NCBI GenBank assembly: GCA_949297015.1
Contig: CASFRF010000050.1
Location: 903-64,902, forward strand
Reading direction: 5' to 3'
Length of the DNA: 64,000 nucleotides
Source: an uncultured bacterium
Lineage (GTDB): Bacteria; Verrucomicrobiota; Lentisphaeria; Victivallales; Victivallaceae
In this document: positions 1 through 23,810 of the stretch, piece by piece
Numbering within the stretch: the stretch's first letter is position 1
Layout of the letters: each line of letters opens with the position of its first letter
Notes under the pieces: model-generated
What the model was told of the DNA's origin: nothing
The model's database searches: none
The model's input: only the letters and a program-made list of their open reading frames with translations
Position numbers and translations under genes: made by a program

Positions 1-966
1 GGAGGTAAGCTCCGGCGGCTCTTCAACGCCGGAACGGGGTTCGACGACTCCGAACCAGCTGAAGAATGAGCAGCTCTCCTCGCGGTCCGCGGTCTGTTCG
101 CGGAAACGACGGGCTCCGGGCAGTTCCGGGGGCAGCAGCTCAGCCACTGCCCGGGGATGGACGGCAAAGTAGAGTTCGTCACAGGGCAGCTCGGCGCCGT
201 CGGAGAGCAGTACCCGGTGGCACCGCCGGTCCCGGAGCTCCAGCAACCGCGTTACCCGGACTCCGGTCCGCAGCTCGATTCCCAGTTCCCGCGCCCGTTC
301 CCGGAAACCCTCCAGAAAGGCGTCTCCGCCGTGCTCGACCCGGGCGAGATGATCGAAAAGTCCGTGACTGACCCGGCTGTGAAACGCCAGCGGCACTTCG
401 CAGGGGGCCGAACCATGACACAATGCGGCGCTGCCCAGCACGGTCCGGACCTCCGGCGAAAGCCGTAAGTGGTCGAGCCATTGGTCCAGCGTGATGAATT
501 CATTTTCATCGAAGGCCAGGGGATCGGACGGAGCGCTGCGCAGGTCGAACATCGGAGTGCGCTGGACGATCGCCTTTTCTCGCTCGAAATAGCGCCGGAT
601 GCCGTCGGCCTCGGCCGGGAATTCGGCTTCGAGTGCTGCGCCCACCGCGTCGATGCCGCCGGTGGGCAGCGCAATCCGGCGGCCGGTTTCAGCCAGCAGC
701 AACCGGCTGCGGAAGGGGGTTTCACGTACCGCCGCGGAGAGACCGAGCACCTCCAGCATCTGATTCAAGACGCCGCCGAAACCGCCGGTGAAGTGGAATC
801 CGGTATCGAAAGGAATGCCGTGGCGGTAAAACCGCTGGAGCAGACCGCCGGGATGGTCCTGGCATTCGATGACCGTGACCCGGCGACCGGTTTCAGCCAG
901 CAACAGCGCCAGCGACAGTCCGCCGGCGCCGCTGCCGAGTACCAGAGTGGAGGCCCCGCCGGTCAC
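1..966 (-). CDS. NAD(P)/FAD-dependent oxidoreductase, phytoene-desaturase (CrtI)/amine-oxidase-like; partial, C-terminus lies beyond position 1
   Basis: Absent from the ORF track because no stop codon falls inside the window. My translation of the minus strand from GTG 966..964 reads MTGGASTLVLGSGAGGLSLALLLAETGRRVTVIECQDHPGGLLQRFYRHGIPFDTGFHFTGG... This shows a GxGxxG Rossmann fold plus the acidic residue/HPGG block typical of CrtI-type flavoenzymes. The frame stays open down to nt 1. The GTG overlaps the fabG stop (ATGTGA). Confidence 0.7.
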   Translation of the reverse strand, partial: MTGGASTLVLGSGAGGLSLALLLAETGRRVTVIECQDHPGGLLQRFYRHGIPFDTGFHFTGGFGGVLNQMLEVLGLSAAVRETPFRSRLLLAETGRRIALPTGGIDAVGAALEAEFPAEADGIRRYFEREKAIVQRTPMFDLRSAPSDPLAFDENEFITLDQWLDHLRLSPEVRTVLGSAALCHGSAPCEVPLAFHSRVSHGLFDHLARVEHGGDAFLEGFRERARELGIELRTGVRVTRLLELRDRRCHRVLLSDGAELPCDELYFAVHPRAVAELLPPELPGARRFREQTADREESCSFFSWFGVVEPRSGVEEPPELTS

Positions 967-1694
967 ATCACCAGCCCGCCGTTGACCGCCAGCACCTGGC
1001 CGGTGAGGTAGGTTGCATCCGGACCGCACAGGAAGGAGACCGCCCCGGCCACCTCTTCAACCGTTCCGGCCCGGCGCAGGGGAATCAGCGGCAGTACCCG
1101 GTCGAGCGGAATTTCCCGGGTCAGATCGGTGTCGATGAAGCCCGGCGCCACTGCATTGACCGTGATCCCTTTGCGTCCGACTTCGCGGGCCAGCGCCTTG
1201 ACGGCGCCGATCAGGCCGGCCTTGGCCGCCGAGTAGTTGACCTGGCCCGGTTGCCCGGTCTGACCGGAGGCGGAGGCGATTGCGACGATACGGCCGTGTC
1301 GCTGCGCCAGCATCCCGAACAGCAGCGGCTGGACGACATGATAGAAGCCATCCAGATTGGTGGCGAGCACCTCGCGCCACTCCTCCGGACTCAGAAAGGC
1401 GAGCAGATTGTCCCGCACGATTCCGGCATTGTAGACGATCACCTCCGGTGCGGTGTCGGCGAAATGCTCCGACAACAGTCGCGAACACGCCTCTCGGTCG
1501 CACACGTCGAAGGCGAGAAAGGTGCCGTTCCGTCCGCAATTCCGCACCGATGCCGCCAGCTCGGCCACAGCCGGAGTTTCGCGGCGCCCGGTAAACACCA
1601 GATCGAAACCGTCGCGCGCCAAGCGTTCGACAATGGCACGCCCGATGCCGCGGGTTCCCCCCACGACCAGGGCGACTCTGGAATTTCCGGTCAT
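963..1694 (-). CDS. fabG: 3-oxoacyl-[ACP] reductase, short-chain dehydrogenase/reductase (FabG-like; ketoreductase of the lipid cluster)
   Basis: SDR hallmarks: VALVVGGTRGIGRAI cofactor site, YNAGIV, catalytic Ser...YSAAK, PGFIDTD. Track ORF is 963..1745. Start trimmed to ATG 1694 (MTGNSRV) because a GGAAGG RBS precedes it and a predicted -10 box lies inside the longer ORF. Confidence 0.85.
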   Translation of the reverse strand: MTGNSRVALVVGGTRGIGRAIVERLARDGFDLVFTGRRETPAVAELAASVRNCGRNGTFLAFDVCDREACSRLLSEHFADTAPEVIVYNAGIVRDNLLAFLSPEEWREVLATNLDGFYHVVQPLLFGMLAQRHGRIVAIASASGQTGQPGQVNYSAAKAGLIGAVKALAREVGRKGITVNAVAPGFIDTDLTREIPLDRVLPLIPLRRAGTVEEVAGAVSFLCGPDATYLTGQVLAVNGGLVM

Positions 1695-1745
1695 CTTTTG
1701 CGCCTTCCGCCTGTTTACCCTGAGGATTCTGTGAAAGTGTGGCAT

Positions 1746-1774
1746 AAAATACCCGGCCTTGTTTGAAAATGCAA
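1746..1774 (-). promoter_or_regulatory. predicted sigma70-type promoter for fabG/oxidoreductase operon
   Basis: Minus strand reads TTGCAT (1774..1769), 17-nt spacer, TATTTT (1751..1746). About 50 nt leader with RBS before ATG 1694. Motif reading only. Confidence 0.4.
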
Positions 1775-1827
1775 ATCCTTTCCGGGCACGTCCGGCGGGA
1801 CAAGACCGGTTTTTTCGGGGGGGATGA

Positions 1828-1855
1828 TTGTTTTTGCCGCGAATGGGGGTACATT
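1828..1855 (+). promoter_or_regulatory. predicted sigma70-type promoter for the long plus-strand lipid operon
   Basis: TTGTTT (1828..1833), 16-nt spacer, TACATT (1850..1855). The same TACATT -10 hexamer recurs upstream of two other operons (19543, 28540). GAGG RBS at 1883..1886. Confidence 0.35.
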
Positions 1856-1885
1856 ACGGGGAGTCCCGGGGGGTGAGAATGCGAG

Positions 1886-3334
1886 GTGTTCATGTTTGAT
1901 CCGAGTCGATTTGATTATACCGGAGAGGAGATTGCGGCGGCGGCCGCCGCGGATCGGCTGTTGTCGTTGGAGCTGGAATTCAGTCGCCGCTGCAACTATC
2001 GCTGTCCTTATTGCTACACCGGAACCGCGGAGCCCGCGCCGGATGAACTCTCCGCCGCGGAACTCGATGACGTGATCGGCCAGGCGGCGGAACTCGGCGC
2101 GCGCAAGATCGTGATTCTGGGCGGCGAGCCGTTGCTGGTGCCCGGACTCTTCGACCATTTGGAGCGGATCCGGGAGCTGGGGCTCGGAGCCGAAATTTTC
2201 ACCAACGGTTCGCTGATTACCGCCGAAACGGCCGCCCGGCTCTACGCTGCCGACGCCCGGGTGGTGGTCAAGCTCAATTCGTTGCAGCCCGAGGTTCAGG
2301 ATCGGTTGACCGGACGTCCCGGGTCGCTGGCGCGGGTGATGCGGTCGATCGAATGGTTGCAGCGCGCGGGATTTGATTCGCCAGAGCGGCTGGGGGCCAG
2401 TACGGTAATTTCGAACGACAACATCGGGGAGCTGGCCGGACTCTGGCGTTATCTGGTCGAACGTCGGATCGATCCCTATTTCGAGATGCTGACGCCGCAG
2501 GGCCGGTTGCTCGACCACCCCGAGCTGGGGGTGGCTCCGGCCCGGGTCCGGGAACTGTTCGAGGAGTTGTCCCGTTACGATGCCGGGCGCGGCCGTCACT
2601 GGGAGCCGCAGCCGCCGCTGGTTGGAGCCAGCTGTTTCCGCCATCTGTACAGTTGCGTGGTCACGGCGACCGGCCGGGTCATGCCCTGTGTCGGCGTGAC
2701 GGTGGAGCTCGGAAATGTCCGAGAGACTCCGCTCGGGGAGATTCTGCGCGAGAGCAGCGTGCTGCGCGATCTCAAGGACTACCGGAACCGGATCAAGGAG
2801 CCCTGTGCCGGGTGCGAAAAACGGGAGCACTGCTACGGTTGTCGCGGAGCGGCCTATCAGTTGACCGGCGACTATCTGGCGGCCGATCCTCTGTGCTGGC
2901 GCAATGAGGCGAAGCGTGAGCAGATCGCGGTGCTGCCGGTGCCGCTGGCTCCGTTGCTGCCGCACCGGGCTCCGGCGGCTTTTCCCGGCTCGCTGGTCGC
3001 CGTCGGCGCCCGGAGTGTGGCCGAGGTGACAATTCCTCCCGACTCGCCGTACGGCGAAACCACCGGCGAGCTGGTGCCGGCGGCGCTGGTCGAACTGGCG
3101 GCGCAGGTGGCCGCGGCGGCTGATGCCTTCCGGCACCGGGGAAAATCGCGGCCGGGACTGCTGGTCGAAGCCCGCGAAGTGCAGTTTTACGCCACCGTCC
3201 GGGTGGGCGAGAGGTTGCGGATCGAGGTGATGGAGACGGCGAATTTTGACTGCTGGTATCTGGTCCGGTTCCGGATCGAACGCGAAGGAGCGGCGGTTGC
3301 CGGAGGAGGCTTGAAGTTATGCGTGGCGGAGTAA
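1886..3334 (+). CDS. radical SAM / SPASM-domain enzyme fused to a C-terminal FabZ-like (His-less, ApeI-type) hotdog domain
   Basis: CNYRCPYC (CxxxCxxC, nt 1991..2014); GGEPLL block; Cys-rich SPASM-type tail (CFRHLYSC..MPC, CAGCEKREHCYGCRGAAY, DPLCW). The last ~126 aa (nt 2954..3331) begin LLPHRAP..LV and continue ELVPAALVELAAQ...VQFYATVRVGERLRIEV. That is the FabZ/FabA hotdog pattern without the GHFP histidine. GTG 1886 is the longest start; ATG 1892 lies 5 nt after a GAGG RBS and may be the true one. Confidence 0.8.
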   Translation: MFMFDPSRFDYTGEEIAAAAAADRLLSLELEFSRRCNYRCPYCYTGTAEPAPDELSAAELDDVIGQAAELGARKIVILGGEPLLVPGLFDHLERIRELGLGAEIFTNGSLITAETAARLYAADARVVVKLNSLQPEVQDRLTGRPGSLARVMRSIEWLQRAGFDSPERLGASTVISNDNIGELAGLWRYLVERRIDPYFEMLTPQGRLLDHPELGVAPARVRELFEELSRYDAGRGRHWEPQPPLVGASCFRHLYSCVVTATGRVMPCVGVTVELGNVRETPLGEILRESSVLRDLKDYRNRIKEPCAGCEKREHCYGCRGAAYQLTGDYLAADPLCWRNEAKREQIAVLPVPLAPLLPHRAPAAFPGSLVAVGARSVAEVTIPPDSPYGETTGELVPAALVELAAQVAAAADAFRHRGKSRPGLLVEAREVQFYATVRVGERLRIEVMETANFDCWYLVRFRIEREGAAVAGGGLKLCVAE

Positions 3335-3936
3335 TCGGTGTCGGTGTGCTGTTGCTGCTGCTCGGTCTGGCCGCGGCGGGAAGCGAGTTCAGCGCGGCCA
3401 TTCAGGAGCGGTTTTCCGGATTGCGCACGTTGCGGGCGGAGTTTGTTCAGCGCAAGCAACTGAAGCTGCTGAATCACGAGCTGAAGATCTCCGGAGAGTT
3501 CTGTCTGGAAAAGGGCGGCCGGCTGGCCTGGCGGGTGGCGGAGCCGATGCGTTACAATTGCATTCTGGAGGAGGATAAGCTCACGCAGTGGGACGAGGAT
3601 ACCGGCCGGGTATTGGAACTGCCGGCTGGAAAACTTCCCTGGTTGAGCATGCTGTTCCGGAGTCTCGACAGCTGGTTGACCGCCGATTTGAAGGTGCTGT
3701 CCCGCGATTTTGAGGTGCGCGAGGAGCCGGCGGCGCGGCGCTTGCTGCTGACTCCCCGGTCGGGGACTCTGGCGGAACTGGTCCGGGAGCTGGAATTCAA
3801 CTTCGATCCGGAATTGACCCGGCTGGAGCGGGTCCGGATCGTTGAAGTTAATGGCGACGTGCTGCTGATTGAATTCCGGGATCTCCGGTGGAATCAGCCC
3901 ATCCCGGAGGAGAAATGGCGGCCCGACGCGCGTTAG
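3319..3936 (+). CDS. LolA-like outer-membrane lipoprotein-carrier family protein
   Basis: Signal peptide (GVGVLLLLLGLAAAGSE). LolA-like N-terminal pattern (ERFSGLRTLRAEFVQRKQLKLL...ISGEF). GGAGGAGG RBS 9 nt upstream; start overlaps the end of the preceding gene. Sits directly before an MMPL exporter, as in aryl-polyene-type clusters. Call rests on motif plus context. Confidence 0.6.
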   Translation: MRGGVIGVGVLLLLLGLAAAGSEFSAAIQERFSGLRTLRAEFVQRKQLKLLNHELKISGEFCLEKGGRLAWRVAEPMRYNCILEEDKLTQWDEDTGRVLELPAGKLPWLSMLFRSLDSWLTADLKVLSRDFEVREEPAARRLLLTPRSGTLAELVRELEFNFDPELTRLERVRIVEVNGDVLLIEFRDLRWNQPIPEEKWRPDAR

Positions 3937-6900
3937 AGCAGCGGATCACCCGGTTGCTGGTCCGGAGTGTCCGGCATCGCCGGGCGTTGTGGGTGACCCT
4001 GATGGTGCTGCTGGCGCTGGCACTGGCGGCGATCGGCTTGTGCGGGCGCTTCGGCAACGATGTCTCGCAGTTGTTCCCGGAGGGATCAGAGTCGGGGACT
4101 GCCTTCCGGTGGATGCGTCGCAGCGGACTGGCGAACAAGGTGATCCTCGAATTCACCCCTCCGGCGGAACAGTCCCTGCCGGAGCTGGAACCGTATCTGA
4201 CGGAACTCGCGGAACATCTGGCCCGCTCCCCACTGATTGAGTCGGTCGATTTCCGGTTCCGTGCCGATCAGCTGTTGGAGACGGCACAAAAACTGGTCGC
4301 AGCCGTGCCGCTGATCACCTCTCCGGAGATGTTGTCGGCGGCGGTTCCGGCGGAGACCGTGGACCGGATCTATCGGCAGCTGCTGAAACCGGGACTGGGC
4401 AGCGGCGAATTTCTGCGGCTGGATCCCTTCGGTCTGACCCCTCCGATCCTGGCGCAGCTGACCAAACTGCAGGAGCTCTCCGGACTCGCCTTTTCGCCGG
4501 AACTGCCGTTCCCGGCCACGGTGGACGGTCGTCGGGCGGCGTTGCTGCTCGACGTCCGTCCGGCCTGTTCGGAAATTTCCGGCAGCCGGGAGCTGCTGAC
4601 CTTTCTGCGGCAGGAGCTCGCCACGGTGCCGCCGGGGGTGACGACCCGGATTCTCGCTCCGCATGTCCGGACCGTGGGCAACGAGGAGGTGATCAAGCGT
4701 GATCTGGGCGTTGCCGGAGCACTTTCGCTGCTGCTGCTCCCCGCGTTGTTCCTCTATTGCTACCGCGCGAGTTGGCCTTCGCTGTGGATCCCGCTGCTGC
4801 CGGTGCTGGCCGGGATCTTGGCGCTGGGGGGACTTTCGCTGGTGCTCGACGAGATCTACTTTTTCGTGATCGGCATGGGCGGGGCGGTGGTGGGGCTGGC
4901 CGTTGACTACGGAATTCACATCTATGCCGCGCGGCGGGGACGCAGCGGACTGCGTCGGGTGGGCCGGATCGCGTTGCCGGTCGCGGCGGGCGCCACGACC
5001 AGCTGCGGGGTGTTTCTGCTGCTGACCGGGACCGGCATTGCCGCGTACCGCCAGCTCGGAATCTACGCCGCTATGGCTCTGGCGCTGAGTTTGCTGCTGT
5101 TTCTGATGTTGCTCCCGGGATTGCTCGGGAGCCGCGGCGGGCGCTGCCGTGAACTGCGGGGCGTAACCTGGTCGCCCCGGCAGCGGCGGGTGGTGCTGCT
5201 GATCTGGGGCGGCTTGCTGCTGCTGGCGCTGCCGGCGGCGATGAAAATCCATTTTTCGACCGGCATGGAACAGTTCGACGGCGCCCCGGCGGAGGTCCGG
5301 CGGGACGAGGCGGAGTTCAACGCCGCCTGGCGGCGGGCACCGGCGCCGGCAGTGGTCATAGAACTGGCCGATTCGCTGCCGGAACTGGAGACCCGGCTGG
5401 AACAACGTTACCGGCAGTTGCTGCCGCTGGCGGGAGAGTCGGAGATCTTCGGCCCTTCGGCGCTGTGGCCGGCTCCGGAAGTCCGGGCCCGGAATCTCGC
5501 CGCCTGGCGGGCGTGGCTGGACTCCGGGCACGGCGGGGCGTTGTTCCGGGAATTGCGCCGGGCGGCGGTGGCTCGGGGCTTTGATCCGACGTTTTTTGCG
5601 CCTTTTGAACAGACTTTGAAAGCGGGTATTGCGGCAGGAGAGCAGCAAGTGTTGCCCGAGCCGATCGATTCGTGTCTCAAGCGGACCCGACGGCGGACGC
5701 CGGAGGGGGGCTGGGCTGGAGTGCTGCTGGTGCGCGACACGCCGGAGACGGTGCGGCAGGTCCGTGCGGCGCTGGCGGCGGAGCCGGGGGCGGCGGTTTT
5801 GTCGCCGGTGGCTTTTGAGCAGATGCTGGGCACGGAGTTCGGACAGCGGTTCCGGTATCTGCTGCCGTCGGCCTTGGTGCTGATCGCGGTCTGTGCGATA
5901 TTTTTTCTGGGATCGTGGCGCCGGGCGCTGGCGGCGCTGTCGGTGCCGGCGACCGCGCTGCTGCTGGTGCTGGGAGGCTACGCGTGGTGGGGGGTGGAGC
6001 TGAATATGGTCTCCGCCTTTGCCGGGTTGGTGCTGGCCGGACTGGCCATCGATTACGGTATTTTTGCGGTTCATGCGTGTGCAGAGGGACGACACTCCGG
6101 GTTGTGGACTGCCCTGCTGCTTTCGGCGGCAACGACGTTTGTCACCGGGGCGGCGGTGCTGTTTTCCAGACATCCGGTGCTGTTCTACACCGGACTGACG
6201 CTGTCGCTGGGAATCCTGATCGCCTGGTTGACCGCGGTGCTGGCGGTCCCGGCGCTGCCCCGCCGCTGGCTGGCCGGGTGCGCCGGGGTGCTGCTGCTGA
6301 CGGTGGTCGGAGGCTGCCGGACTCCGGCCTTTACACGCGGAACGTTGCCGGAGTTGGAGCCGGAGCAGGCGCTCCGGGAGTACCGGCAGTGGCGCGAGCG
6401 CGGATTGGAAGCGGCGACTTGGGAGGCGGGTCTGGTCTTCGAGTACGGATTCTGGCAGTTCCCGCTGCTGACGGTGGGCCAAGTGGAACCGGCTGCCGAG
6501 GCATTGCGGCTGGTCGGTCTGAGTCCGGCGGGGGGGACGGTGTTTGAATTGGCGGGCCGGGGGGAGAAGCTGGAATCGGTGGCGACGCTGCCGTTTCTGA
6601 AGTTGGAGGACCCGGAGGCTGCCGGACGGGTGCTGTACCGCGATTTCGCCAATCTCTATTTCGGCAATGCTCCGGCGGTGGAACCGGAGGTCCGGGGACA
6701 GTTTCTGTACAGTACGGTGGAACTTTCCGACGGTGACCGTCTGCGGTACACCTTCGGCGGTCGTCCTCTGCGGCTGCTGCAAAAGAGCCGGAGCGGCTTC
6801 TGGCACGAGCGCTGGCGGGCGGAGTATTATGAGTATCAGTGGCGTCACGGGCGCTGGTTCCCCGGAGAAATTGACTACGAAAACGTGGCCGGAGGGTATC

Positions 6901-6944
6901 GGCTGATTGTCCGCCCCCGGCGATTGACGGAGGAGGAGAAATGA
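3915..6944 (+). CDS. MMPL/RND-type lipid exporter fused to a C-terminal DUF3261-like soluble domain
   Basis: Two helix bundles each carry the MMPL-type motif (GLAVDYGIHIYAARRG; GLAIDYGIFAVHACAEG), separated by a large soluble loop. After the last helix, a lipobox-like LLTVVGGC (Cys codon 6315..6317) is followed by a 208-aa Trp/Tyr-rich soluble domain. Start set to ATG 3915 (GGAGGA RBS just upstream); the track start GTG 3888 lies deeper inside the LolA-like gene. Confidence 0.7.
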   Translation: MAARRALEQRITRLLVRSVRHRRALWVTLMVLLALALAAIGLCGRFGNDVSQLFPEGSESGTAFRWMRRSGLANKVILEFTPPAEQSLPELEPYLTELAEHLARSPLIESVDFRFRADQLLETAQKLVAAVPLITSPEMLSAAVPAETVDRIYRQLLKPGLGSGEFLRLDPFGLTPPILAQLTKLQELSGLAFSPELPFPATVDGRRAALLLDVRPACSEISGSRELLTFLRQELATVPPGVTTRILAPHVRTVGNEEVIKRDLGVAGALSLLLLPALFLYCYRASWPSLWIPLLPVLAGILALGGLSLVLDEIYFFVIGMGGAVVGLAVDYGIHIYAARRGRSGLRRVGRIALPVAAGATTSCGVFLLLTGTGIAAYRQLGIYAAMALALSLLLFLMLLPGLLGSRGGRCRELRGVTWSPRQRRVVLLIWGGLLLLALPAAMKIHFSTGMEQFDGAPAEVRRDEAEFNAAWRRAPAPAVVIELADSLPELETRLEQRYRQLLPLAGESEIFGPSALWPAPEVRARNLAAWRAWLDSGHGGALFRELRRAAVARGFDPTFFAPFEQTLKAGIAAGEQQVLPEPIDSCLKRTRRRTPEGGWAGVLLVRDTPETVRQVRAALAAEPGAAVLSPVAFEQMLGTEFGQRFRYLLPSALVLIAVCAIFFLGSWRRALAALSVPATALLLVLGGYAWWGVELNMVSAFAGLVLAGLAIDYGIFAVHACAEGRHSGLWTALLLSAATTFVTGAAVLFSRHPVLFYTGLTLSLGILIAWLTAVLAVPALPRRWLAGCAGVLLLTVVGGCRTPAFTRGTLPELEPEQALREYRQWRERGLEAATWEAGLVFEYGFWQFPLLTVGQVEPAAEALRLVGLSPAGGTVFELAGRGEKLESVATLPFLKLEDPEAAGRVLYRDFANLYFGNAPAVEPEVRGQFLYSTVELSDGDRLRYTFGGRPLRLLQKSRSGFWHERWRAEYYEYQWRHGRWFPGEIDYENVAGGYRLIVRPRRLTEEEK

Positions 6945-10741: not shown

Positions 10742-11898
10742 GAACGCTGGTGGCGATTCCGGTCTACAATCACGGCGCCACGGTGCTGGAGGTGGTACGG
10801 CGGACTTGCGTCGTGCACCCTGAAGTGCTGGTGGTGGATGATGGCTCCACCGATCTTGGCCCCGACTTTGAACGGGAGCTGGCGGCCGCGGGGGTGGCGC
10901 TGGTCCGGCATCCACGCAACCGGGGAAAGGGGGCGGCGCTGCGCACCGCGTTGACTTGGGCTCGGGAGCACGGGTTCGATTATCTGGCGACCATTGACGC
11001 CGACGGCCAGCACGACCCCGGAGATCTGCCCCGGCTGCTGGCGGTGGCGGCTGCCGCGGCGCCGGAGCCGGTGCTGGTGGTCGGGTGTCGCGACTTCTCC
11101 GGGCCGGGAATTCCGGAAAAGAGCCGTCGAGGTCGGGAGATCGCCAATTTCTGGCTCCGGGTCGAGTGCGGAGCCGACTGTGCCGACTGTCAGAGCGGTT
11201 TCCGGCTCTATCCGGTGGCGGCGCTGGCTCCGCTGAAATTTCTGGGGCACGGCTACAACTTTGAAGCCGAGGTGCTGACCCGGGCGGTCTGGGCCGGAAT
11301 CGTGCTCCGGAACGTCCCGGTCCGGGTTCACTATCCACCGCCCGGGGAGCGGGTCAGTCACTTCCGGCTCGGACGGGACAATCTGGCGCTCGGGCTGATG
11401 CACTTTCATCTGGTCGGCCTGCGGCTGCTGCCGTTGCCGCGCCGGGGATCCTGGCGGGCGGTGCGTTCGGCGGCGCAGTCGCTGCGTCATCCGCTCCGGT
11501 TGCTGCGGGCGTTGCTGGCCGAGAACTGCACGCCGGGCGGACTGGCGGCCGCGGCGGCCGTGGGAACGTTGCTGGCGGTGATTCCGATCCCCGGCTTTCA
11601 CTCGGCGGCCATTGTCTATGCGACGCTCCGGCTTCATCTCAACAAGGTGATGGCACTGGCGATTCAGAATCTCTTCATGCCGCCGTTCACGCCGTTTCTC
11701 TGCATTGAACTGGGATATTTTCTGCGGTATGGACGCTGGCTTACCGAATTCAATTTCGATACCGTGGTCCGCGAACTCGGCTTCCGGCTCTGGGAGTGGC
11801 TGCTGGGCAGTCTGGTGCTGGCTCCGCTGTTTGCAGCTGTGGTGTTTGTGCTGGTCTACGCGACAACCGCATGGCTGCAGCGGAGGAGGTCGGAATGA
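10738..11898 (+). CDS. family 2 glycosyltransferase fused to a C-terminal DUF2062-like membrane domain
   Basis: AIPVYNHGATV, VVDDGSTD, NRGKGAAL and IDADGQHD are the GT2 (GT-A) blocks. The C-terminal ~130 aa form hydrophobic helices (LLAVIPIPGFHSAAIVYATL..., LVLAPLFAAVVFVLVY). ATGA overlap upstream. Confidence 0.8.
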   Translation: MRTLVAIPVYNHGATVLEVVRRTCVVHPEVLVVDDGSTDLGPDFERELAAAGVALVRHPRNRGKGAALRTALTWAREHGFDYLATIDADGQHDPGDLPRLLAVAAAAAPEPVLVVGCRDFSGPGIPEKSRRGREIANFWLRVECGADCADCQSGFRLYPVAALAPLKFLGHGYNFEAEVLTRAVWAGIVLRNVPVRVHYPPPGERVSHFRLGRDNLALGLMHFHLVGLRLLPLPRRGSWRAVRSAAQSLRHPLRLLRALLAENCTPGGLAAAAAVGTLLAVIPIPGFHSAAIVYATLRLHLNKVMALAIQNLFMPPFTPFLCIELGYFLRYGRWLTEFNFDTVVRELGFRLWEWLLGSLVLAPLFAAVVFVLVYATTAWLQRRRSE

Positions 11899-12785
11899 GC
11901 ACGGCCTCCGGAAATCTCAGCGCCCGGCGGGGGCCGGGCGCCGGAATCGCCTTTTTCCGGCTGCTGCTGGCGCTGCCCGGGGGCTGTGCAGCAGCTCTTC
12001 AGCTGGTGGCTCCGGTGGCCGGGTGCTATGCGTTGTTTGATCGCCGGGCCCGCCGGGCGGCGGGGTGGTATTTGCGTCACCGGTTCCCCGGAGCCGGACG
12101 GTTCCGGCTCGGCATGCACGCCTGGCGGCTGATGACGGCCCAAGGGCGGGCGCTGGTGCTGGCGGCGTGGATCGGGCGACGTGGTCTGCCGCCGATCCCC
12201 AGGGTGACGACTCCCGTCGGAGAGGCGTTGCTGCACGACTCTTCGCGGGGCGTGATCCTGCTGATTTCGCACTTCGGGTGCTGGCAGGCGGCGTTGGCGG
12301 GGGTGGGCTCCTGCGGTCGCCCGGTGACGGTGTTGGCTCAAGCCGACCTCAACGCCCGGCTGGATAAGCGCACGCTGGCATTGCGCGAGCGGGAAGCCAT
12401 CCGCTTTCTGGACGCGGAGTCCGGCGTCGACGGCGGGTTGTTCGAGTGTCTGGAGGCGCTGGCGCGCGGCGAACTGGTCTGTTTGATGGGGGATCGTCCG
12501 GCGGGGCCGGTGGTGGAGCTGCCGTTTCTGGGGGGACGCCGGGCCTTTCCGCTTTCGCCCTGGTGGCTGGCGGCGCGGAGCGGTGCGCCGGTGCTGCCGC
12601 TGTGGCTGGCGCTCGAAGGGGGAACCCGGATGAAGTTCTATTTCGGGGAGCCGATTCACCCGCCGCAAACGGTCGGGCGCCGACCCGATCCGGAGTCCGT
12701 CCGACGGGCAGCGGAACCCTATCTGCGGCGTCTGACGGAGCTGGCGCACGACTATCCCTACGAGTTTTTCTGGTTCGATTCGTGA
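11895..12785 (+). CDS. lysophospholipid/lipid-A-type acyltransferase (LpxL/HtrB-like LPLAT family)
   Basis: Start at ATG 11895 (ATGA overlap). N-terminal anchor IAFFRLLLALPGG. GVILLISHFGCWQAALAG corresponds to the H-x-G-N-W-E-type catalytic block of lauroyl/myristoyl acyltransferases, followed by LVCLMGDRP. Confidence 0.6.
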   Translation: MSTASGNLSARRGPGAGIAFFRLLLALPGGCAAALQLVAPVAGCYALFDRRARRAAGWYLRHRFPGAGRFRLGMHAWRLMTAQGRALVLAAWIGRRGLPPIPRVTTPVGEALLHDSSRGVILLISHFGCWQAALAGVGSCGRPVTVLAQADLNARLDKRTLALREREAIRFLDAESGVDGGLFECLEALARGELVCLMGDRPAGPVVELPFLGGRRAFPLSPWWLAARSGAPVLPLWLALEGGTRMKFYFGEPIHPPQTVGRRPDPESVRRAAEPYLRRLTELAHDYPYEFFWFDS

Positions 12786-12795
12786 GTCGGAGCGC

Positions 12796-12823
12796 TTGAC
12801 TTCCGGCGGAGCACCATTACAAT
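12796..12823 (+). promoter_or_regulatory. predicted internal sigma70-type promoter in front of the second KS gene
   Basis: TTGACT (12796..12801), 16-nt spacer, TACAAT (12818..12823), in the only non-overlapping junction (38 nt) of the lipid operon. The -10 abuts ATG 12824 and is 6 nt from ATG 12830, implying a leaderless transcript. Confidence 0.4.
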
Positions 12824-14020
12824 ATGAGTATGAGTGAGACGAGAAAACGGTTTCCGGTGATCACCGGCTGGGGATGTCGCTCAGCTCTGGGGCGGACTCC
12901 GGAGTCGACGCTACGGGTGTTGTCCGGTCAGGCCCCGGCGCCGGAACCGCAGCTTCCGAAACGGTTGCGGACGACGCTGACCCTGCCGGTATTCGAGCTT
13001 CCGGATGAGGAGCTGCCACCCGGGCCGGGCGGACGTGAAAACGGCTTGCTGCGGGCGACGCTGGTGGAGGCGCTGGCGGCGGCGGGGCTCGAGGCCGCCG
13101 CCTTGCGGGGACAGCGCGTCGGGGTGGCGGTGGGCACCACCGGAAAAGTTCAGTTCCACGACTTTGAATTTTGCGCGCGATTGCGCCGGGGGGAGCAGCC
13201 GGATGCGGCATCGCTCCGGGATTTTGTCGACGGTTCGCCGGCGGAGTGTCTGCAGCGGGAACTGGGAGTCTGCGGCCCGGCGTTGACGATCTCCACGGCC
13301 TGCGCTTCCGGCGCCGATGCCTTGGGCGTGGCCGCCGGTTGGCTGCTGGCCGGGAGTTGTGAGCTGGCGATCGCCGCCGGCGTCGACGTGCTCAGTCCGG
13401 TGGCGCTGGCCGGCTTTCATGCGCTCGGAGTGTGCTCCGCGACGCCTTGCCGTCCCTTTGACGCACGTCGCAGCGGGCTGAACTTGGGGGAGGGGGTCGG
13501 CGTGTTGATTCTCGAATCTCCCGCCCGGGCGGCAAAACGCGGCCGCGGGGACGGTTTGTTTCTCGCCGGGTACGGCAAAAGTTTTGACGGTTATCACCTG
13601 ACCCGGCCGGCCCCGGAGGGCCGCTACCTGGAACAGGCGATCCAGCAGGCGCTGGCGGGGGCGGGCCTGACCCCGGGGGAGATCGCACTGGTGAACGCTC
13701 ACGGCACCGGTACCCGGCTCAATGACGCCGTGGAGGCGAAGACCCTGTACCGGGTATTCGGAGTTGGGGTTCGCTATCACTCGACCAAGGGTCTGAGCGG
13801 GCACACGCTGGGTGCGGCCGGAGCGCTGGAAGCGCTGTTCTGCGGGTTGATGCTGCAATCCGGAATCGCCGCTTCCAGCCGGGGATTTGAGGAGCCGGAT
13901 CCGGAGTTGCCGGTCTCTCCGCTGCGTCACCCGACGGCGCTGGAGGGGCGTTTTGTTTTGTCGCTTTCAATCGGTTTCGGCGGTTCCAACAGTGCCTTGA
14001 TTCTGGGGAGAGACCAATGA
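12824..14020 (+). CDS. beta-ketoacyl-ACP synthase, FabF/FabB-like
   Basis: TISTACASGADALGVAAGWL (active-site Cys), GYHLTRPAPEG and NAHGTGTRLND (two His), STKGLSGHTLGAAG, SIGFGGSNSALILG. 398 aa. Confidence 0.85.
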   Translation: MSMSETRKRFPVITGWGCRSALGRTPESTLRVLSGQAPAPEPQLPKRLRTTLTLPVFELPDEELPPGPGGRENGLLRATLVEALAAAGLEAAALRGQRVGVAVGTTGKVQFHDFEFCARLRRGEQPDAASLRDFVDGSPAECLQRELGVCGPALTISTACASGADALGVAAGWLLAGSCELAIAAGVDVLSPVALAGFHALGVCSATPCRPFDARRSGLNLGEGVGVLILESPARAAKRGRGDGLFLAGYGKSFDGYHLTRPAPEGRYLEQAIQQALAGAGLTPGEIALVNAHGTGTRLNDAVEAKTLYRVFGVGVRYHSTKGLSGHTLGAAGALEALFCGLMLQSGIAASSRGFEEPDPELPVSPLRHPTALEGRFVLSLSIGFGGSNSALILGRDQ

Positions 14021-14571
14021 TCCGGGCATTTGAACTGCAGCTCGACCCCGGGGAGTTGACTCCGGACCGGCTTCGGGCGCTGCGTACCGGCGCATTCCGG
14101 CGGCTGGACCGCTACGGGACGCTGGCGCTGGCGGCGGCCCGGCGTTTCCGCACGGAGTTGTCGCGGCCGTTGAGTCCGGAGTCCGCGTTGCTGACGGTCA
14201 GTTCCTTCGGCCCGCTGACAACCTCGTTCGGGGTGCTGGCCGAATTGTTGACGTATTCGGAGGAGGAGTTGTCGGCCGGTGGATTTGCCCATTCGGTCTA
14301 TAACGCGGCCTCGGCGGTGGCGGCGCTGGAGCTCGGTCTGCACGGCCCGGTGCTGGCTCTGGGCGGTTTTGAACAGCCGGAACCGGCGGCGCTGGAGCTG
14401 AGTCGGTGCTGGCTGGCGTGCGGCTGGGTTCCGGCGGTGGTGTTGATGATTCTGGAAGAGGCGTCGCCGGTGACCGAGCTGGCGGCGCAATGGTATCCGG
14501 AACGGTTTCCCGAACCGGTGGTCGAACGGCTCCGGGTGGTTTTGCTGCGAGCGGGGGAGGAAGGAGAATGA
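14017..14571 (+). CDS. Cys-less KS-partner protein (chain-length-factor-like), second copy
   Basis: ATGA overlap with the KS gene. 184 aa. GFAHSVYNAASAVAALELGLHGPVLAL resembles the KS active-site neighbourhood but lacks the Cys. Same position relative to a KS as the 8808 gene. Confidence 0.5.
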   Translation: MIRAFELQLDPGELTPDRLRALRTGAFRRLDRYGTLALAAARRFRTELSRPLSPESALLTVSSFGPLTTSFGVLAELLTYSEEELSAGGFAHSVYNAASAVAALELGLHGPVLALGGFEQPEPAALELSRCWLACGWVPAVVLMILEEASPVTELAAQWYPERFPEPVVERLRVVLLRAGEEGE

Positions 14572-14819
14572 GGATGGAAACGGAGATCTTACATGCCCTG
14601 ATCGAGGAGATCGCGCTGATTACCGGGTGCGAGTGCGCCCAGGTGAAGCCCGATGCCGATCTGGCCGAGAACGGGATTCATTCGCTGGGCTTTATCGAAC
14701 TGCTGCTGGCGGTCAAGCGGCGCTGGCAGCTGGATCTGACTGGGGGCGAGCTGGGGCCGGAGGACGTCGCATCGGTGACGGCGTTGGCCCGCCGGATCGA
14801 AGTCGGACTGCAAAAATGA
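14568..14819 (+). CDS. acyl/peptidyl carrier protein (Ser in an HSL rather than DSL motif)
   Basis: Start at ATG 14568 (ATGA overlap, AAGGAG RBS). 83 aa. LAENGIHSLGFIELLLAVKRRW is the phosphopantetheine-attachment helix, and G-x-H-S-L is the variant typical of NRPS thiolation domains. Confidence 0.7.
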   Translation: MRMETEILHALIEEIALITGCECAQVKPDADLAENGIHSLGFIELLLAVKRRWQLDLTGGELGPEDVASVTALARRIEVGLQK

Positions 14820-16042
14820 ACGGGCGGCTCTATCTCGGGAGTTTCGATTACGCCGCGGCGGCGCTGGACCGGGCCTGTATCCTGACTCCGGCCCGGGGCA
14901 ATCCCTTTTTGTTGATGGTGGACGGCAATCTCCCTTGGGCCGAACGGCTGGCGGAACTTCCGGAGGAGGCCTTGCGCTTGTTGCACGGCCGTCGACGGCG
15001 GGCCTGGCAGCTGGCGCCTTACTGGCAGCCGGGCGCGGCCGATCCGGTTTTCGTGGAAACCGTGAGCGCTGCCGCGGCAGACCGCGAGCGGGCGATCGCC
15101 GATTACTGGAACACGCCGCTGCCGCCGGGTGCGCATCTGGCCTGCCGCCGGTTGACTTCTGCGGAGGGGAGCGGACCGTGGCTGTTCAAGTTCAGTCATC
15201 AATTGTTCGATGGCGGCGGGGCCGAGCTTTTTGTCAAAACCTTGTTGCGGAATCCGGCGGAACTGGGGCCGGGAAACTCCTTTTTAAATCATCCGGAACT
15301 TCGGGATTGGAGCACCAAGTTCCGTTCAGGACAGCGGGTGAATCGCTTTCTGCGGGCGTTGCCGCCGATTTCGGCTCTCCCCGCCGCTGCCCCGAACGCG
15401 GCGTCGCGGTTCCGGCGTTTCGAGTTTGAGGTTGCTCCGATCCGGGAGCGCAGCGACCGGCTGGCCGGGCCGCTGATGCTGGGCGTCTATCTGGCCGCGG
15501 TGGCGGGGTGCGCGTTCGGAGAACTGTCCGCTCCGCCGGGGGCGCTGTTGCTGCCGGTGACCGCCGACCGGAGGCAGCGACGGCGCGGGAGGGGGCATTG
15601 CTACGGCAACCACTGGAGTTGTCTGCCGCTGCTGTTTGAGCGACGTCCCGAGTGGCGCTTCGCGGACTATCTGGCGGCGGCCCGGGTGGGATTCACCCGG
15701 AGTGTATCCGAAGGGATTCCGGTCGATTTTGAGAATGCCAACTATCTGACCCGGATTGCGCCGTTGAACTGGTTTGCCGCGCACTGCTCCGGGCTGTTCC
15801 ACGGCACCGGCGGGAGTTTGATGTTCTCGTTCATCCCCGACTCCGGTGCCTGGGACGACGCAATTTCCGGGGTCAGCCATCTGCCTGCGATGCCGCCATC
15901 CCCGGGGCTGGGGGTGGTGTTCAGCCAGTTTCGCGACCGGCTGTTTCTGGTGTTGTCCTATCGGGAGGGAGTGTTGCCGGAGCCGGAAATCGAACACCTC
16001 GCCGGAGCACTGGTCCGGCGATTGCAGGAAGGAGAGGCGTAG
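14816..16042 (+). CDS. stand-alone condensation-domain-like acyltransferase (HxxxDG motif)
   Basis: Start at ATG 14816 (ATGA overlap). FKFSHQLFDGGGAELF (nt 15194..15220) places H128/D132 where NRPS C domains, PapA5 and WS/DGAT enzymes carry HHxxxDG. About 408 aa, the usual size of such domains. Confidence 0.5.
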   Translation: MNGRLYLGSFDYAAAALDRACILTPARGNPFLLMVDGNLPWAERLAELPEEALRLLHGRRRRAWQLAPYWQPGAADPVFVETVSAAAADRERAIADYWNTPLPPGAHLACRRLTSAEGSGPWLFKFSHQLFDGGGAELFVKTLLRNPAELGPGNSFLNHPELRDWSTKFRSGQRVNRFLRALPPISALPAAAPNAASRFRRFEFEVAPIRERSDRLAGPLMLGVYLAAVAGCAFGELSAPPGALLLPVTADRRQRRRGRGHCYGNHWSCLPLLFERRPEWRFADYLAAARVGFTRSVSEGIPVDFENANYLTRIAPLNWFAAHCSGLFHGTGGSLMFSFIPDSGAWDDAISGVSHLPAMPPSPGLGVVFSQFRDRLFLVLSYREGVLPEPEIEHLAGALVRRLQEGEA

Positions 16043-16043
16043 G

Positions 16044-17465
16044 GTGAATCTTTATCAGGAGATCCGGCGCGAAGTCGGGATTTATCAGGGACCTGCGGTG
16101 GCTGACGGGGAGGCGCTTTACAGCTATCCGCAGCTGTTTGCCGCGGTTGCAGGATGGAGTGGACAGCTGGCCCGTTGCGGAGTGGGGCCGGATTTCCGCG
16201 TCGGGGTGGAGGTGGAGAACTCGGCTGACTATCTCGCCTTGTCGCTGGCGATTCTGAAGCTGGAGGCGGTGATCGTGCCGATTTCGGTGCAGAGCTCGCC
16301 GGACGAAGTGTCCGAACTGGTGGACCGGATCGGTGTCAATCTGCTGCTTACCCAGCGCACGCTGCCGGACTCCGTGGAGTTGATGGGAGAACTCGACTCG
16401 GAGTTCCGGATCCGGGCGCTGCGGCTGCCGGCGCCGGTTTCTCCGGTAATGCTGACCGAAGGGGACCGCGCGGCCTTTATCCGATTCTCCAGCGGGACCA
16501 CCGGCGGCAGCAAAGGGGTGGTGCTTTCGCACCGGACGGTGCTGGAGCGGACTTCCGCCTGCGTCGGGTTGCGGATCGGCGAGGGGGAGGCCGTGCTCTG
16601 GGTGCTGGATATGGCCTTCCACTTTGTGGTGACCATTCTGCTCTTTTTGCGCCGCCGGGCACTGCTGGTGCTCTGCCGCGCGCCTCTGGAGCAGAGCATG
16701 GCGCGGGAGCTGCGCCGGCACCGGATTTCTCTGCTCTACGCCACGCCTTATCACTACCGGCTGCTGACCCGGCAGGAGGCGTGCCCGAAAGAGCTGCTCG
16801 CTTCCGTGCAACAGGCGATCTCCACGGCCATGCGTCTGGACCGGGCCGAGGCGGAGGCTTTCGCCGCCAAATTCGGGTTTCCGCTGACCCAGGCCTACGG
16901 GATCATCGAGGTGGGGCTGCCCTGTCTCAACAGTTCGGTGGAGCCGGAGCGCCTGGAGTCGGTAGGCCGTTTGCAGCCCGCCTACCGGTTGGAGCTGCGC
17001 GAACCCGATGCCGCGGGAATCGGCGAAATCTGCCTGGCCGGACCGGGGCTCTTTGACGCCTATCTTTCGCCTTTTGAGCTGCGCACCGCCCGGTTTCCCG
17101 ATGGGTTCTTCCGGACCGGTGATCTCGGGCGGCTCGACGCGGAGGGGTATTTGTTCATTTCCGGACGCTGTAAGAGCGTGATCAACTTTCTGGGAATGAA
17201 GATCTTTCCCGATGAGGTCGAAACGGTGTTGAACGCGCATCCGGCGGTGCGGGAATCCCGGGTGTCGGGCCGTCCGGAACCGGGGTTCGGCGAGTTGCCG
17301 CAGGCGGAGCTGGTACTCAATCCCGGTTGGAATCCCGGTCCGGAGTTGTGGCGTGAGCTGCGAAAGTACCTCCTGGCCCATCTCCCCGGGTACAAGGTGC
17401 CCAAGGAGTTCTCCACGGTTTCCGAACTGCCCCGGACCCGCAGCGGCAAGTTGATCCGGCACTGA
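16044..17465 (+). CDS. AMP-dependent synthetase/ligase (ANL superfamily; acyl or aryl-ACP/CoA ligase)
   Basis: GTG 16044, 1 nt after the preceding TAG. FIRFSSGTTGGSKGVVLSHRT, QAYGIIEVG, FRTGDLGRLDAEGYLFISGRCKSVINFLGMKIFPDEVE and PRTRSGKLIR are the ANL core motifs. Confidence 0.8.
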   Translation: MNLYQEIRREVGIYQGPAVADGEALYSYPQLFAAVAGWSGQLARCGVGPDFRVGVEVENSADYLALSLAILKLEAVIVPISVQSSPDEVSELVDRIGVNLLLTQRTLPDSVELMGELDSEFRIRALRLPAPVSPVMLTEGDRAAFIRFSSGTTGGSKGVVLSHRTVLERTSACVGLRIGEGEAVLWVLDMAFHFVVTILLFLRRRALLVLCRAPLEQSMARELRRHRISLLYATPYHYRLLTRQEACPKELLASVQQAISTAMRLDRAEAEAFAAKFGFPLTQAYGIIEVGLPCLNSSVEPERLESVGRLQPAYRLELREPDAAGIGEICLAGPGLFDAYLSPFELRTARFPDGFFRTGDLGRLDAEGYLFISGRCKSVINFLGMKIFPDEVETVLNAHPAVRESRVSGRPEPGFGELPQAELVLNPGWNPGPELWRELRKYLLAHLPGYKVPKEFSTVSELPRTRSGKLIRH

Positions 17466-17481
17466 GCTGCCGGGCGTGGCG

Positions 17482-19428: not shown

Positions 19429-19473
19429 CGTCTGAATCCTGTAGTTCCCGATTGTTCGGATATTTTTGGAAAT

Positions 19474-19502
19474 AATATACACGGTTCCCACCGTAAAATC
19501 AA
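19474..19502 (-). promoter_or_regulatory. predicted sigma70-type promoter for the dCMP deaminase operon
   Basis: Minus strand: TTGATT (19502..19497), 17-nt spacer, TATATT (19479..19474). Confidence 0.45.
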
Positions 19503-19519
19503 GAATTTCACCGGAGCTC

Positions 19520-19548: not shown

Positions 19549-19556
19549 ACCTTGTT

Positions 19557-23788: not shown

Positions 23789-23810
23789 GGAGTCTCCGGC
23801 ACCGGAAGAC

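Follow-up and report, generated by a model that had tools for sequence, protein, structure and literature searches.

We analysed a gene cluster at the left end of a 64,000-nucleotide stretch of DNA (the window) from an uncultured bacterium of the Victivallaceae (GenBank assembly GCA_949297015.1, contig CASFRF010000050.1, positions 903 to 64,902 of the forward strand). The cluster, at positions 1-17465, joins genes of the kind found in aryl polyene (APE) and flexirubin clusters to genes for two radical S-adenosylmethionine (SAM) enzymes, one of which is fused to a dehydratase subunit. It very probably belongs to a widespread family that includes the kuste3335-3349 genes of Kuenenia, and whose cobalamin (B12)-binding radical SAM enzyme is recognised by the NCBIfam model TIGR04072. 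Its product may be an exported, polyene-type outer-membrane lipid like those of APE and flexirubin clusters, a reading to which we assign a probability of about 0.6.

Organisation of the cluster

The G+C content of the region is approximately 67%, and six-frame lists of open reading frames (ORFs) are crowded. The G+C content at third codon positions (0.72-0.86) nevertheless singled out one coding frame per gene and, together with hidden Markov model (HMM) scans, gave the same 17 genes as a preliminary description of this sequence, with borders agreeing to within a few codons. Families were assigned by Pfam and NCBIfam HMM scans, profile searches and a fold search. These upheld the family assignments proposed earlier, and the APE/flexirubin-type gene inventory is real.

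Two genes lie on the minus strand. The first (1-966) encodes a CrtI/amine-oxidase-like FAD enzyme (PDH-like), of which the window holds the N-terminal 322 of 498 residues; it matches Amino_oxidase (54.6 bits) and NAD_binding_8, and scores 53 bits against the NCBIfam model crtI_fam, for which the cutoff is 238. The second (963-1745) encodes a FabG-type ketoreductase (ApeQ/FlxB-like; adh_short_C2, 175 bits; FabG model PRK05653.1-5, 285 bits, cutoff 273). All other genes of the cluster are on the plus strand. After the radical SAM fusion gene come a LolA-like periplasmic lipid carrier (ApeL-like, 3319-3936; Pfam LolA, 48.7 bits) and an RND/MMPL-type exporter with a DUF3261-like tail (ApeM+ApeN-like, 3915-6944; HAE3, 53.9 bits; ACR_tran weak). 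The MMPL match of the exporter is also weak (E = 9e-4), as is the DUF3261 match of its tail at 6288-6944 (E = 0.002, 18.3 bits, cutoff 22.3). With the small ketosynthase partner at 8808-9413, these two sub-threshold matches are the weakest assignments in the cluster; a homologue of the exporter in another locus (L085) is annotated with both MMPL and DUF3261.

An ApeI-like hotdog protein (6941-7291) and a 4HBT-type thioesterase (ApeK-like, 7278-7751; 4HBT_2, 55.2 bits) precede the first ketosynthase (KS) and its small partner, the B12 radical SAM enzyme, a GT2 glycosyltransferase-DUF2062 protein (ApeJ-like, 10738-11898; Glycos_transf_2, 79.9 bits; DUF2062, 48.2 bits) and an LpxL/LPLAT-type acyltransferase (ApeD-like, 11895-12785; Lip_A_acyltrans, 71.5 bits). 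A second KS with its partner is followed by an acyl carrier protein (ACP) with an 'HSL' serine motif (14568-14819; PP-binding, 28.3 bits), a stand-alone condensation-fold protein with an HxxxD motif (14816-16042) and an ANL (acyl/aryl-AMP-forming) ligase (16044-17465; AMP-binding, 156 bits; AMP-binding_C, 55.9 bits), which resembles long-chain fatty-acid ligases. From gene 8 to gene 16 (7744-16044) neighbouring genes overlap by four nucleotides (8808/8811, 9410/9413, 10738/10741, 11895/11898, 14017/14020, 14568/14571 and 14816/14819), and the sole intergenic gap is at 12786-12823. Such a pattern is typical of a translationally coupled operon.

The preliminary description took the left border to be cut by the window, and so it proved. 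The FabG protein matched a contig of the same organism (L081) in two European Nucleotide Archive (ENA) assemblies, and there the cluster runs on for about seven genes past the window edge. In the orientation of the window minus strand, this left arm encodes the CrtI-like enzyme at its full 498 residues, a third KS, a second ACP, a PlsC-type acyltransferase and a PaaK/FlxY-type ligase. The full cluster, which is type II PKS/FAS-like, is approximately 26 kb long and the window has most of it.

A radical SAM-SPASM protein fused to a dehydratase subunit

A hotdog protein lacking the catalytic histidine had been described as the product of a separate gene. It forms instead the C-terminal end (137 residues) of the SPASM protein: a radical SAM and SPASM core (1892-2920, plus strand; Radical_SAM, 90.9 bits; SPASM, 37.4 bits) and an ApeP-like hotdog domain (2921-3334, plus strand) form a single polypeptide. 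In the survey of related loci described below, the two halves are in frame and contiguous in 38 of the 39 loci where both were detected.

Numbered from the GTG at 1886, the core has an intact CxxxCxxC motif (CNYRCPYC) at C36, C40 and C43, and eight more cysteines, between residues 250 and 337, fit the SPASM pattern. The nearest NCBIfam models are AhbD and NirJ2, at about 130 bits and far under their cutoffs. AhbD, NirJ and PqqE catalyse oxidative decarboxylation or C-C coupling; at this distance, these nearest named relatives say little about the reaction of the window protein.

Precomputed annotation placed PF22817 (ApeP-like) on the SPASM protein and PF22818 (ApeI-like) on the 116-residue hotdog protein at 6941-7291. 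When both hotdogs were scanned against Pfam-A at E ≤ 1, neither model was returned, and the copies of the Pfam library appear to differ. Because of this discrepancy the ApeP assignment was tested independently. A profile of 23 homologous C-terminal domains was searched against the Protein Data Bank (PDB), and matched chain B of 6QSR, which we take to be the ApeI:ApeP dehydratase structure, with E = 4.7e-17; FabZ proteins came next. The 116-residue protein itself matched FabZ with E = 1e-4 and chain A of 6QSR with E = 0.055. It has the FabZ catalytic histidine (GHFP) and lacks the glutamate, while the fused ApeP-like domain keeps the glutamate, which is invariant in the family, and lacks the histidine. 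The halves thus complement each other, as would the subunits of a heterodimer that share a single composite active site, and the ApeI-like protein is presumed to be the partner of the ApeP-like domain. The preliminary description counted the SPASM enzyme among the components foreign to the canonical APE set; since it is fused to the canonical ApeP subunit, it is not an add-on to that set.

A degenerate form of the fusion was found in an APE-like cluster of an 8.1-Mb genome (L084:13017-14405; ENA ERZ25074583). There an ApeP domain is joined to a SPASM-like N-terminal domain from which the CxxxCxxC segment is deleted and in which several SPASM cysteines are replaced, giving a 'pseudo-radical-SAM'::ApeP protein. 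This cluster, an aerobic-type relative, adds an O-methyltransferase, a flavin halogenase and a HemN-like radical SAM gene. The loss of the motif from an otherwise retained fusion suggests that the N-terminal domain serves a structural purpose as well.

The cobalamin-binding radical SAM enzyme

The B12 enzyme (9410-10741, plus strand) scores 463.8 bits against TIGR04072, above the cutoff of 360. This model is named 'rSAM_ladder_B12', with the product name 'lipid biosynthesis B12-binding/radical SAM protein'. A B12-binding domain (PF02310, 58.8 bits) is followed by a radical SAM domain (PF04055, 58.3 bits) with an intact CPFRCAYC motif at residue 188. Next among NCBIfam models come BzaD (152 bits, cutoff 450) and Trp 2-C-methyltransferase (108 bits). 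A search of the PDB with the family profile gave TsrM as the best match (6WTE, E = 4.9e-52), then AprD4, CysS and TokK.

TsrM and BzaD methylate aromatic sp2 carbons, and C-methylation of the ring of an aryl head group is therefore the most economical guess for the window enzyme. Such a reaction would also explain why the cluster has no ApeB-type methyltransferase; since Kuenenia encodes methylases of both kinds, however, replacement of ApeB by the B12 enzyme is not required. Chemistry of the 5'-deoxyadenosyl radical on an sp3 carbon is possible as well. In TsrM, Glu273 ligates the unique iron and so prevents radical chemistry; when residues are counted along the alignment, its place in the window enzyme is taken by a valine.

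Conservation of gene order

To survey the distribution of the cluster, relatives of the B12 enzyme were scanned in one genome per species, the 80 best loci were fetched with 10-kb flanks, and all cluster proteins were compared with them by tblastn. At least 597 species genomes contain a relative of the enzyme. The 80 best loci come from Lentisphaerota, Nitrospirota, Desulfobacterota (Geobacteraceae, Pelobacter, Desulfuromonadales and Desulfobacteraceae), Omnitrophota, Hydrogenedentota, Planctomycetota (Sedimentisphaerales), Kiritimatiellota/Verrucomicrobiota and Spirochaetales, and one is in a metagenome-assembled genome (MAG) labelled archaeal. Among the matches listed, the closest relative of the B12 enzyme is in Victivallis vadensis DSM 14823 (58% identity); Holophaga foetida encodes the enzyme too.

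A colinear gene order recurs in these 80 loci and is kept across at least eight phyla. It reads FabG, CrtI-like enzyme, KS, ACP, PlsC, FlxY-like ligase, SPASM::ApeP, LolA, RND, (ApeI), 4HBT, and then KS, partner, B12 radical SAM enzyme, GT2, LPLAT, (ACP), KS, partner, ACP, HxxxD protein and ANL ligase. Among loci with enough flank, the KS upstream of the B12 gene is present in 55 of 55 and the SPASM gene in 46 of 55; on the other side GT2 was found in 57 of 59, LPLAT in 56 of 59, the downstream KS in 57 of 59 and the HxxxD gene in 41 of 59. The end of the cluster with FabG and the CrtI-like gene is mostly out of reach of the 10-kb flank, but it is present wherever the view extends that far (L017, L042, L064 and L078). 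It is present also in L083-L085, three loci retrieved by way of their CrtI-like protein, in which the CrtI-like gene stands between FabG and KS. Beside the cluster, the CrtI-like gene was seen in six loci other than that of the window. Both radical SAM genes, the CrtI-like gene and the HxxxD gene are thus syntenic with the KS/ACP core, as the preliminary description needed them to be. In the window organism the FabG to ligase arm is inverted, and the cluster reads divergently.

The order varies in some loci. Some loci have no condensation-fold or ANL gene downstream. Victivallis vadensis DSM 14823 (L001, NZ_QEKH01000012.1), the closest cultured carrier, has the genes between the FlxY-like ligase and the last ACP, both included, and neither a condensation-fold nor an ANL gene within 10 kb downstream; on this ground these two genes are considered accessory. 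In two MAGs of Lentisphaerales and Verrucomicrobiota (L042 and L078) an ApeI-like gene directly follows the FlxY-like ligase, and SPASM::ApeP-LolA-RND is absent while the B12 gene and the rest are kept. The same three genes are absent within 10 kb in five Victivallales loci (L008, L009, L015, L047 and L059).

Such variation, which includes loss of the SPASM block from 9 of the 55 loci, and the inversion of the FabG to CrtI-like arm in the window organism could be taken to mean that the radical SAM, CrtI-like and condensation-fold genes are accidental neighbours, or serve another pathway, and that the APE-like core alone is the functional unit. We regard this as scarcely credible. The B12 gene sits between a KS partner and GT2 with four-nucleotide overlaps on both sides, the SPASM core is covalently fused to a core subunit, and the FabG-PDH-KS-ACP-PlsC-ligase cassette is conserved in its own right and as a rule colinear with the other genes. 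The same order across phyla, the four-nucleotide overlaps and the fusion together exclude chance adjacency.

Correspondence with Kuenenia genes

In 2009 Rattray et al. described gene clusters of Kuenenia in which SAM-radical enzymes occur together with phytoene-desaturase-like genes and numerous FabF paralogues. They pointed out that gene order is strikingly alike in Desulfotalea psychrophila, Geobacter and Pelobacter; among the syntenic genes were those for a 'phenylacetyl-CoA ligase' and for a new membrane protein (PMC2649909). For comparison with the window, we used the first 400 or so nucleotides of each synthetic Kuenenia gene given in the supplement of Javidpour et al. (2016), approximately 128 residues per protein, and orthology rests on these fragments. 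The kuste3342 fragment matched the B12 enzyme (40% identity, E = 5e-24), kuste3343 the SPASM enzyme (44%, E = 3e-30), kuste3344 the FlxY-like ligase (40%, E = 1.5e-20), kuste3335 the GT2 protein (41%, E = 6e-17) and kuste3341 FabG (24%, E = 2e-13). Matches of kuste3340 to the ACPs (28-30%, E = 2e-6 to 5e-5), of kuste3345 to the small KS partner at 8808-9413 (33%, E = 0.003) and of kuste3336 to the CrtI-like enzyme (30%, E = 0.008) were weaker. Kuenenia kuste3335-3352 has in addition SAM methylases (kuste3338 and kuste3347), a deacetylase and a VacJ-like gene, none of which was seen in the window cluster; conversely, the window cluster has its FabG to ligase arm inverted, and no Kuenenia counterpart was identified for its condensation-fold and ANL genes.

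The current ladderane candidate of anammox bacteria is a different and anammox-specific set, Cluster I (kuste3603-3608: amxACP, amxFabZ, amxFabF2/FabFmut, PDH and a B12 radical SAM enzyme). The N-terminal 128 residues of kuste3608 gave no match to any cluster protein at E ≤ 5, and the N-terminal fragment of kuste2803, likewise a B12 radical SAM enzyme of a cluster now regarded as anammox-specific, gave none to the B12 enzyme at E = 5 and only chance-level matches to other cluster proteins. Orthology of the window B12 enzyme with kuste3608 was ruled out by this lack of fragment similarity. As the kuste3335-3349 fragments match and those of kuste3608 and kuste2803 do not, the window cluster is the counterpart of kuste3335-3349 rather than of Cluster I. 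In the Kuenenia inventory, kuste3335-3349 is the part that non-anammox bacteria have in common with it. Cluster I and the window cluster both have an ACP, a hotdog dehydratase, a KS with an inactive partner, a CrtI-like enzyme and a B12 radical SAM enzyme. They differ in that the window partners have about 190 residues (184 and 201) whereas Cluster I has a full-length FabF partner, in that the window hotdog is ApeI-like and amxFabZ chains match it only at E = 0.07-0.16, and in that genes for export or attachment are absent from the published description of Cluster I.

The presence of an orthologous cluster in Kuenenia, the name of the rSAM_ladder_B12 model and the fusion of a radical enzyme to the dehydratase subunit, where 2-enoyl-ACP forms, invite the idea that the product is a ladderane-like or small-ring lipid, the SPASM and B12 enzymes closing rings stepwise on the growing enoyl-ACP as in the 'type c' proposal described for ladderanes (PMC10139942). 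This is very improbable. The family is found in at least 597 species genomes, nearly all of them non-anammox, and ladderanes are reported from anammox bacteria only (PMC9902471); none were found in Desulfotalea (PMC2649909). The dissimilarity of kuste3608, kuste2803 and amxFabZ to the window proteins tells against it as well. Clusters called 'ladderane-type' by antiSMASH have been surveyed in Desulfobacterota, Omnitrophota, Verrucomicrobiota, Planctomycetota and others, and no function was given (PMC9902471, PMC11968836). According to a 2026 review, ladderane biosynthesis is unresolved.

An unlikely alternative, though one with a published basis, is that the cluster makes a modified fatty acid or a polyunsaturated fatty acid (PUFA) membrane lipid. 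A 'novel anaerobic PUFA pathway' was proposed for kuste3335-3349, to which the window corresponds (Rattray et al. 2009, PMC2649909); the CrtI-like enzyme would desaturate acyl-ACP, and the radical SAM enzymes would act before or after it. The PlsC-type acyltransferase of the left arm and the likeness of the ANL ligase to long-chain fatty-acid ligases fit such a product. The architecture, however, is APE-like throughout (KS with a PF13723 partner, ApeI:ApeP, LolA, RND-DUF3261, GT2-DUF2062 and 4HBT), and the conserved ligase beside the SPASM gene is of the PaaK/FlxY type, which is an aryl-acid type. The polyunsaturated hydrocarbon of Desulfotalea, moreover, can presumably be explained by Pfa/Ole genes. 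When expressed in E. coli, kuste3336 and kuste3607 failed to complement CrtI and no PUFA was formed (PMC4790861; PMC10139942).

We found no paper on TIGR04072 by name and none that assigns a product to the kuste3335-3349/TIGR04072 family, in agreement with the earlier statement that the product has no assigned structure; nor did we find a characterisation that joins ApeP/ApeI with a radical SAM enzyme or an aryl polyene with the carrier genera. The combination of genes is not a new observation: a kuste3335-3349-type cluster was described in 2009 (PMC2649909), having come to notice alongside candidate 'ladderane' genes, and the B12 enzyme has a curated model.

Ketosynthases and their partners

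The Cys-His-His triad is kept in both window ketosynthases (7744-8811, plus strand, Cys116/His250/His284; and 12824-14020, plus strand, Cys160/His293/His327) and in the third KS outside the window. The first matches Ketoacyl-synt_C with 87.7 bits, the second, which is ApeO-like, PRK09185 with 279.7 bits, and the left-arm enzyme PRK09116 with 345.8 bits. None of the three KS motifs is present in either small partner. The partner at 14017-14571 (plus strand, ApeC/CLF-like, 184 residues) just exceeds the cutoff of PF13723 (Ketoacyl-synt_2, 25.4 bits, cutoff 25) and had no match in the PDB. The CLF-like partner at 8808-9413 (plus strand, 201 residues) has no Pfam match and its family assignment is weak; it resembles the PF13723 partner (27% identity over 90 residues, E = 8e-5) and directly follows the KS in 52 of 55 loci.

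In the PDB, the KS at 12824-14020 matched 9s5h_B best (192 bits), above Thermus FabF and the APE ketosynthase 6qsp_A (167 bits). This recent entry (9s5h/9s5i) is named only '3-oxoacyl-(ACP) synthase', and it may be the anammox amxFabF2 heterodimer of a 2026 preprint.

The condensation-fold protein

The protein at 14816-16042 (plus strand) had been called condensation-like from its HxxxDG motif. It has no Pfam or NCBIfam match above threshold. Sub-threshold matches among 34 homologues were to WS_DGAT_C (8 of 34), 2-oxoacid_dh (5 of 34) and Condensation (4 of 34), and in profile searches of the PDB by sequence only, matches to the CAT clan were all non-significant. The family is small: an exhaustive search of 1.84 billion representative clusters found 246 at E ≤ 0.001, and a word-indexed search returned three proteins only. 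Alignments of the 34 locus homologues and of 61 representatives show no variation at His128 and Gly135 and at least 90% conservation of Asp132, in the context F-[DS]-H-x-L-F-D-[AG]-x-G-A-E.

An AlphaFold2 model built from three sequences was poor (pLDDT 51), but one built from 61 sequences was confident (pLDDT 94.9, pTM 0.94). With the latter, Foldseek gave 308 PDB matches at E ≤ 0.001. The 50 matches listed all belong to the CAT clan, nearly all of them to the condensation superfamily, and are mostly condensation, epimerisation or cyclisation domains, with 12-17% identity; the TRI3 O-acetyltransferase is among them. The top match is to AzeD of Pseudomonas aeruginosa, a stand-alone protein (8S6L, E = 5.8e-20, TM scores 0.72/0.69). 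Thus the fold and the motif of the condensation-like enzyme are borne out, and significant support from a sequence family is lacking. By default we read the modelled protein as one that would transfer an acyl group from ACP, in ester or amide formation or in chain release. Dehydration is possible by analogy with AzeD-type and AmbE-type relatives, as named in their PDB titles.

Proposed pathway

The gene families and active-site motifs, the fusion, the structure of the operon, the conserved gene order and the match to Kuenenia are observed; the following steps and product are proposed from them. The FlxY-like ligase, the ANL ligase or both would activate an aryl or acyl acid and load it on ACP. 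Three ketosynthases with intact triads, two of them with small inactive partners in an ApeO:ApeC-like arrangement, would elongate it with malonyl units; FabG would reduce each beta-keto group, and the heterodimeric dehydratase, with histidine from the ApeI-like subunit and glutamate from the ApeP-like domain, would remove water. A ketoreductase and a dehydratase are present and no enoyl-reductase-type domain was found in 25 genes (17 in the window and 8 in the left arm), so that the chain would by default be a conjugated polyenoyl-ACP, as in APE and flexirubin pathways.

We infer, as did the preliminary description, that this acyl chain would be remodelled by radical chemistry and desaturation. 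Tethered to the dehydratase subunit, the SPASM domain is placed to act radically on an ACP-bound 3-hydroxy or 2-enoyl intermediate. The B12 enzyme would most probably C-methylate the head group or the chain. These particular roles of the two radical enzymes, on-carrier tailoring and C-methylation, are tentative. The CrtI-like flavoenzyme may adjust unsaturation. Release of the chain and its attachment to a lipid or glycolipid anchor would fall to the thioesterase, the condensation-fold enzyme, both acyltransferases (LPLAT and PlsC-type) and GT2-DUF2062. LolA and RND-DUF3261 would then take the lipid to the outer membrane by the route that has been proposed for APE lipids.

Several points weigh against this scheme. 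An aromatic starter is suggested solely by the PaaK/FlxY-type ligase directly upstream of the SPASM gene, and neither in the window nor on the L081 contig was an ammonia-lyase or a chorismate lyase seen. The left-arm ligase (FlxY_rubin, 402.6 bits, cutoff 520), FabG (FlxB_rubin_SDR, 268.7 bits, cutoff 340) and the LolA-like protein (LolA2_flexi, 75.1 bits, cutoff 125) all score under the flexirubin cutoffs. The valine at the position of Glu273 weakens the analogy with polar methylation by TsrM, and a non-methylating radical reaction of the B12 enzyme is possible. The SPASM-LolA-RND block is missing beside the B12 gene in the nine loci noted above. Finally, a product has been observed for no member of the family, and expression of candidate Kuenenia genes in E. 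coli, some of them from kuste3335-3349, gave no ladderane product and was hindered by poor protein solubility (PMC4790861).

In a bolder version of the polyene-lipid scheme, both radical SAM enzymes would work repeatedly on the growing enoyl- or polyenoyl-ACP and introduce C-C cross-links, small rings or methyl branches. We think this distinctly improbable. If it were true, anaerobes of many phyla would make unrecognised outer-membrane lipids with radically cyclised or branched polyene chains, and kuste3335-3349 would take part in ladderane chemistry or be its evolutionary source.

Neighbouring sequences

On the left, GNAT_C, DUF4236-TPR and ATP-grasp genes lie beyond the FlxY-like ligase on the same strand (L081:15880-19333). 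None was found adjoining the cluster in other loci, and their membership of it is doubtful; they may be unrelated or a lineage-specific addition, for example for amino-acid conjugation. On the right (17482-25892) the genes are of an unrelated, housekeeping kind: minus-strand genes for a YeiH-like membrane protein, an RfaE domain II-like adenylyltransferase and a ComEB/dCMP-deaminase-like protein are followed on the plus strand by genes for an ABC exporter, an HrpB helicase and a melibiase-family protein. Given this switch of strand and theme, and as these genes are not conserved beside the cluster in other loci, the right border at 17465 stands.

A cobalamin riboswitch or other known RNA was considered, and no Rfam family was found in positions 1-20000. 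There is no tRNA in the cluster region. The divergent intergenic region contains no sigma-70-like promoter, a consensus that is uninformative for this phylum. Elsewhere in the window, G+C falls to 0.59 at 28-30 kb, compared with approximately 0.67 in other parts. Two long ORFs (694 and 400 residues) at 26341-29617 and one of 1249 residues at 31495-35244 (minus strand) have no Pfam match at E ≤ 1e-5.

Significance

The cluster type is on record as a family without an assigned product, and the window adds one member and no new principle. What is added here is the correspondence with kuste3335-3349 and not Cluster I, the conserved SPASM::ApeP fusion with its degenerate form, the fold of the HxxxD protein and the left extension. 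'Ladderane-type' and APE-like clusters recur in genome-mining surveys of anoxic habitats, with no product assigned. Carriers that can be cultivated include Victivallis vadensis DSM 14823, Holophaga foetida and relatives of Geobacter and Pelobacter. With the Kuenenia correspondence and a dehydratase-fused radical SAM enzyme, they make the product and the radical chemistry approachable outside the intractable anammox bacteria.

Comparison with known systems

TsrM and BzaD have an N-terminal B12-binding domain and a radical SAM domain, as does the window B12 enzyme, which scores far under the cutoffs of these families. The HxxxD protein has in common with AzeD (8S6L), PapA5-type proteins, the chain-release C domain of enacyloxin synthesis (6CGO) and WS/DGAT enzymes a two-lobed CAT-like fold and the HxxxD motif.

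Flexirubin clusters of Bacteroidota supply the closest named models for three proteins of the window cluster (FlxY, FlxB and LolA2_flexi). Tyrosine ammonia-lyase and DarA/DarB dialkylresorcinol genes were not found among the genes of positions 1-19500 or of L081.

A further comparison is with the APE clusters of E. coli and Xenorhabdus doucetiae (6QSP, 6QSR). Common to these and the window cluster are a KS with a small inactive partner, a further KS, ACPs, a FabG-type ketoreductase, the ApeI:ApeP split dehydratase, the absence of an enoyl reductase, a 4HBT thioesterase, LPLAT, GT2-DUF2062, a LolA-like protein and MMPL with DUF3261. APE clusters have an ApeB-type SAM methyltransferase, whereas neither the window cluster, as already noted in the preliminary description together with the lack of an ammonia-lyase, nor the L081 extension has a SAM methyltransferase. 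Beyond the APE set, the window cluster has the SPASM core fused to ApeP, the B12 radical SAM enzyme, the CrtI-like and condensation-fold enzymes, a PlsC-like acyltransferase, a second small KS partner and a second ligase. Carriers of window-type clusters, unlike those of APE clusters, are mostly strict anaerobes.

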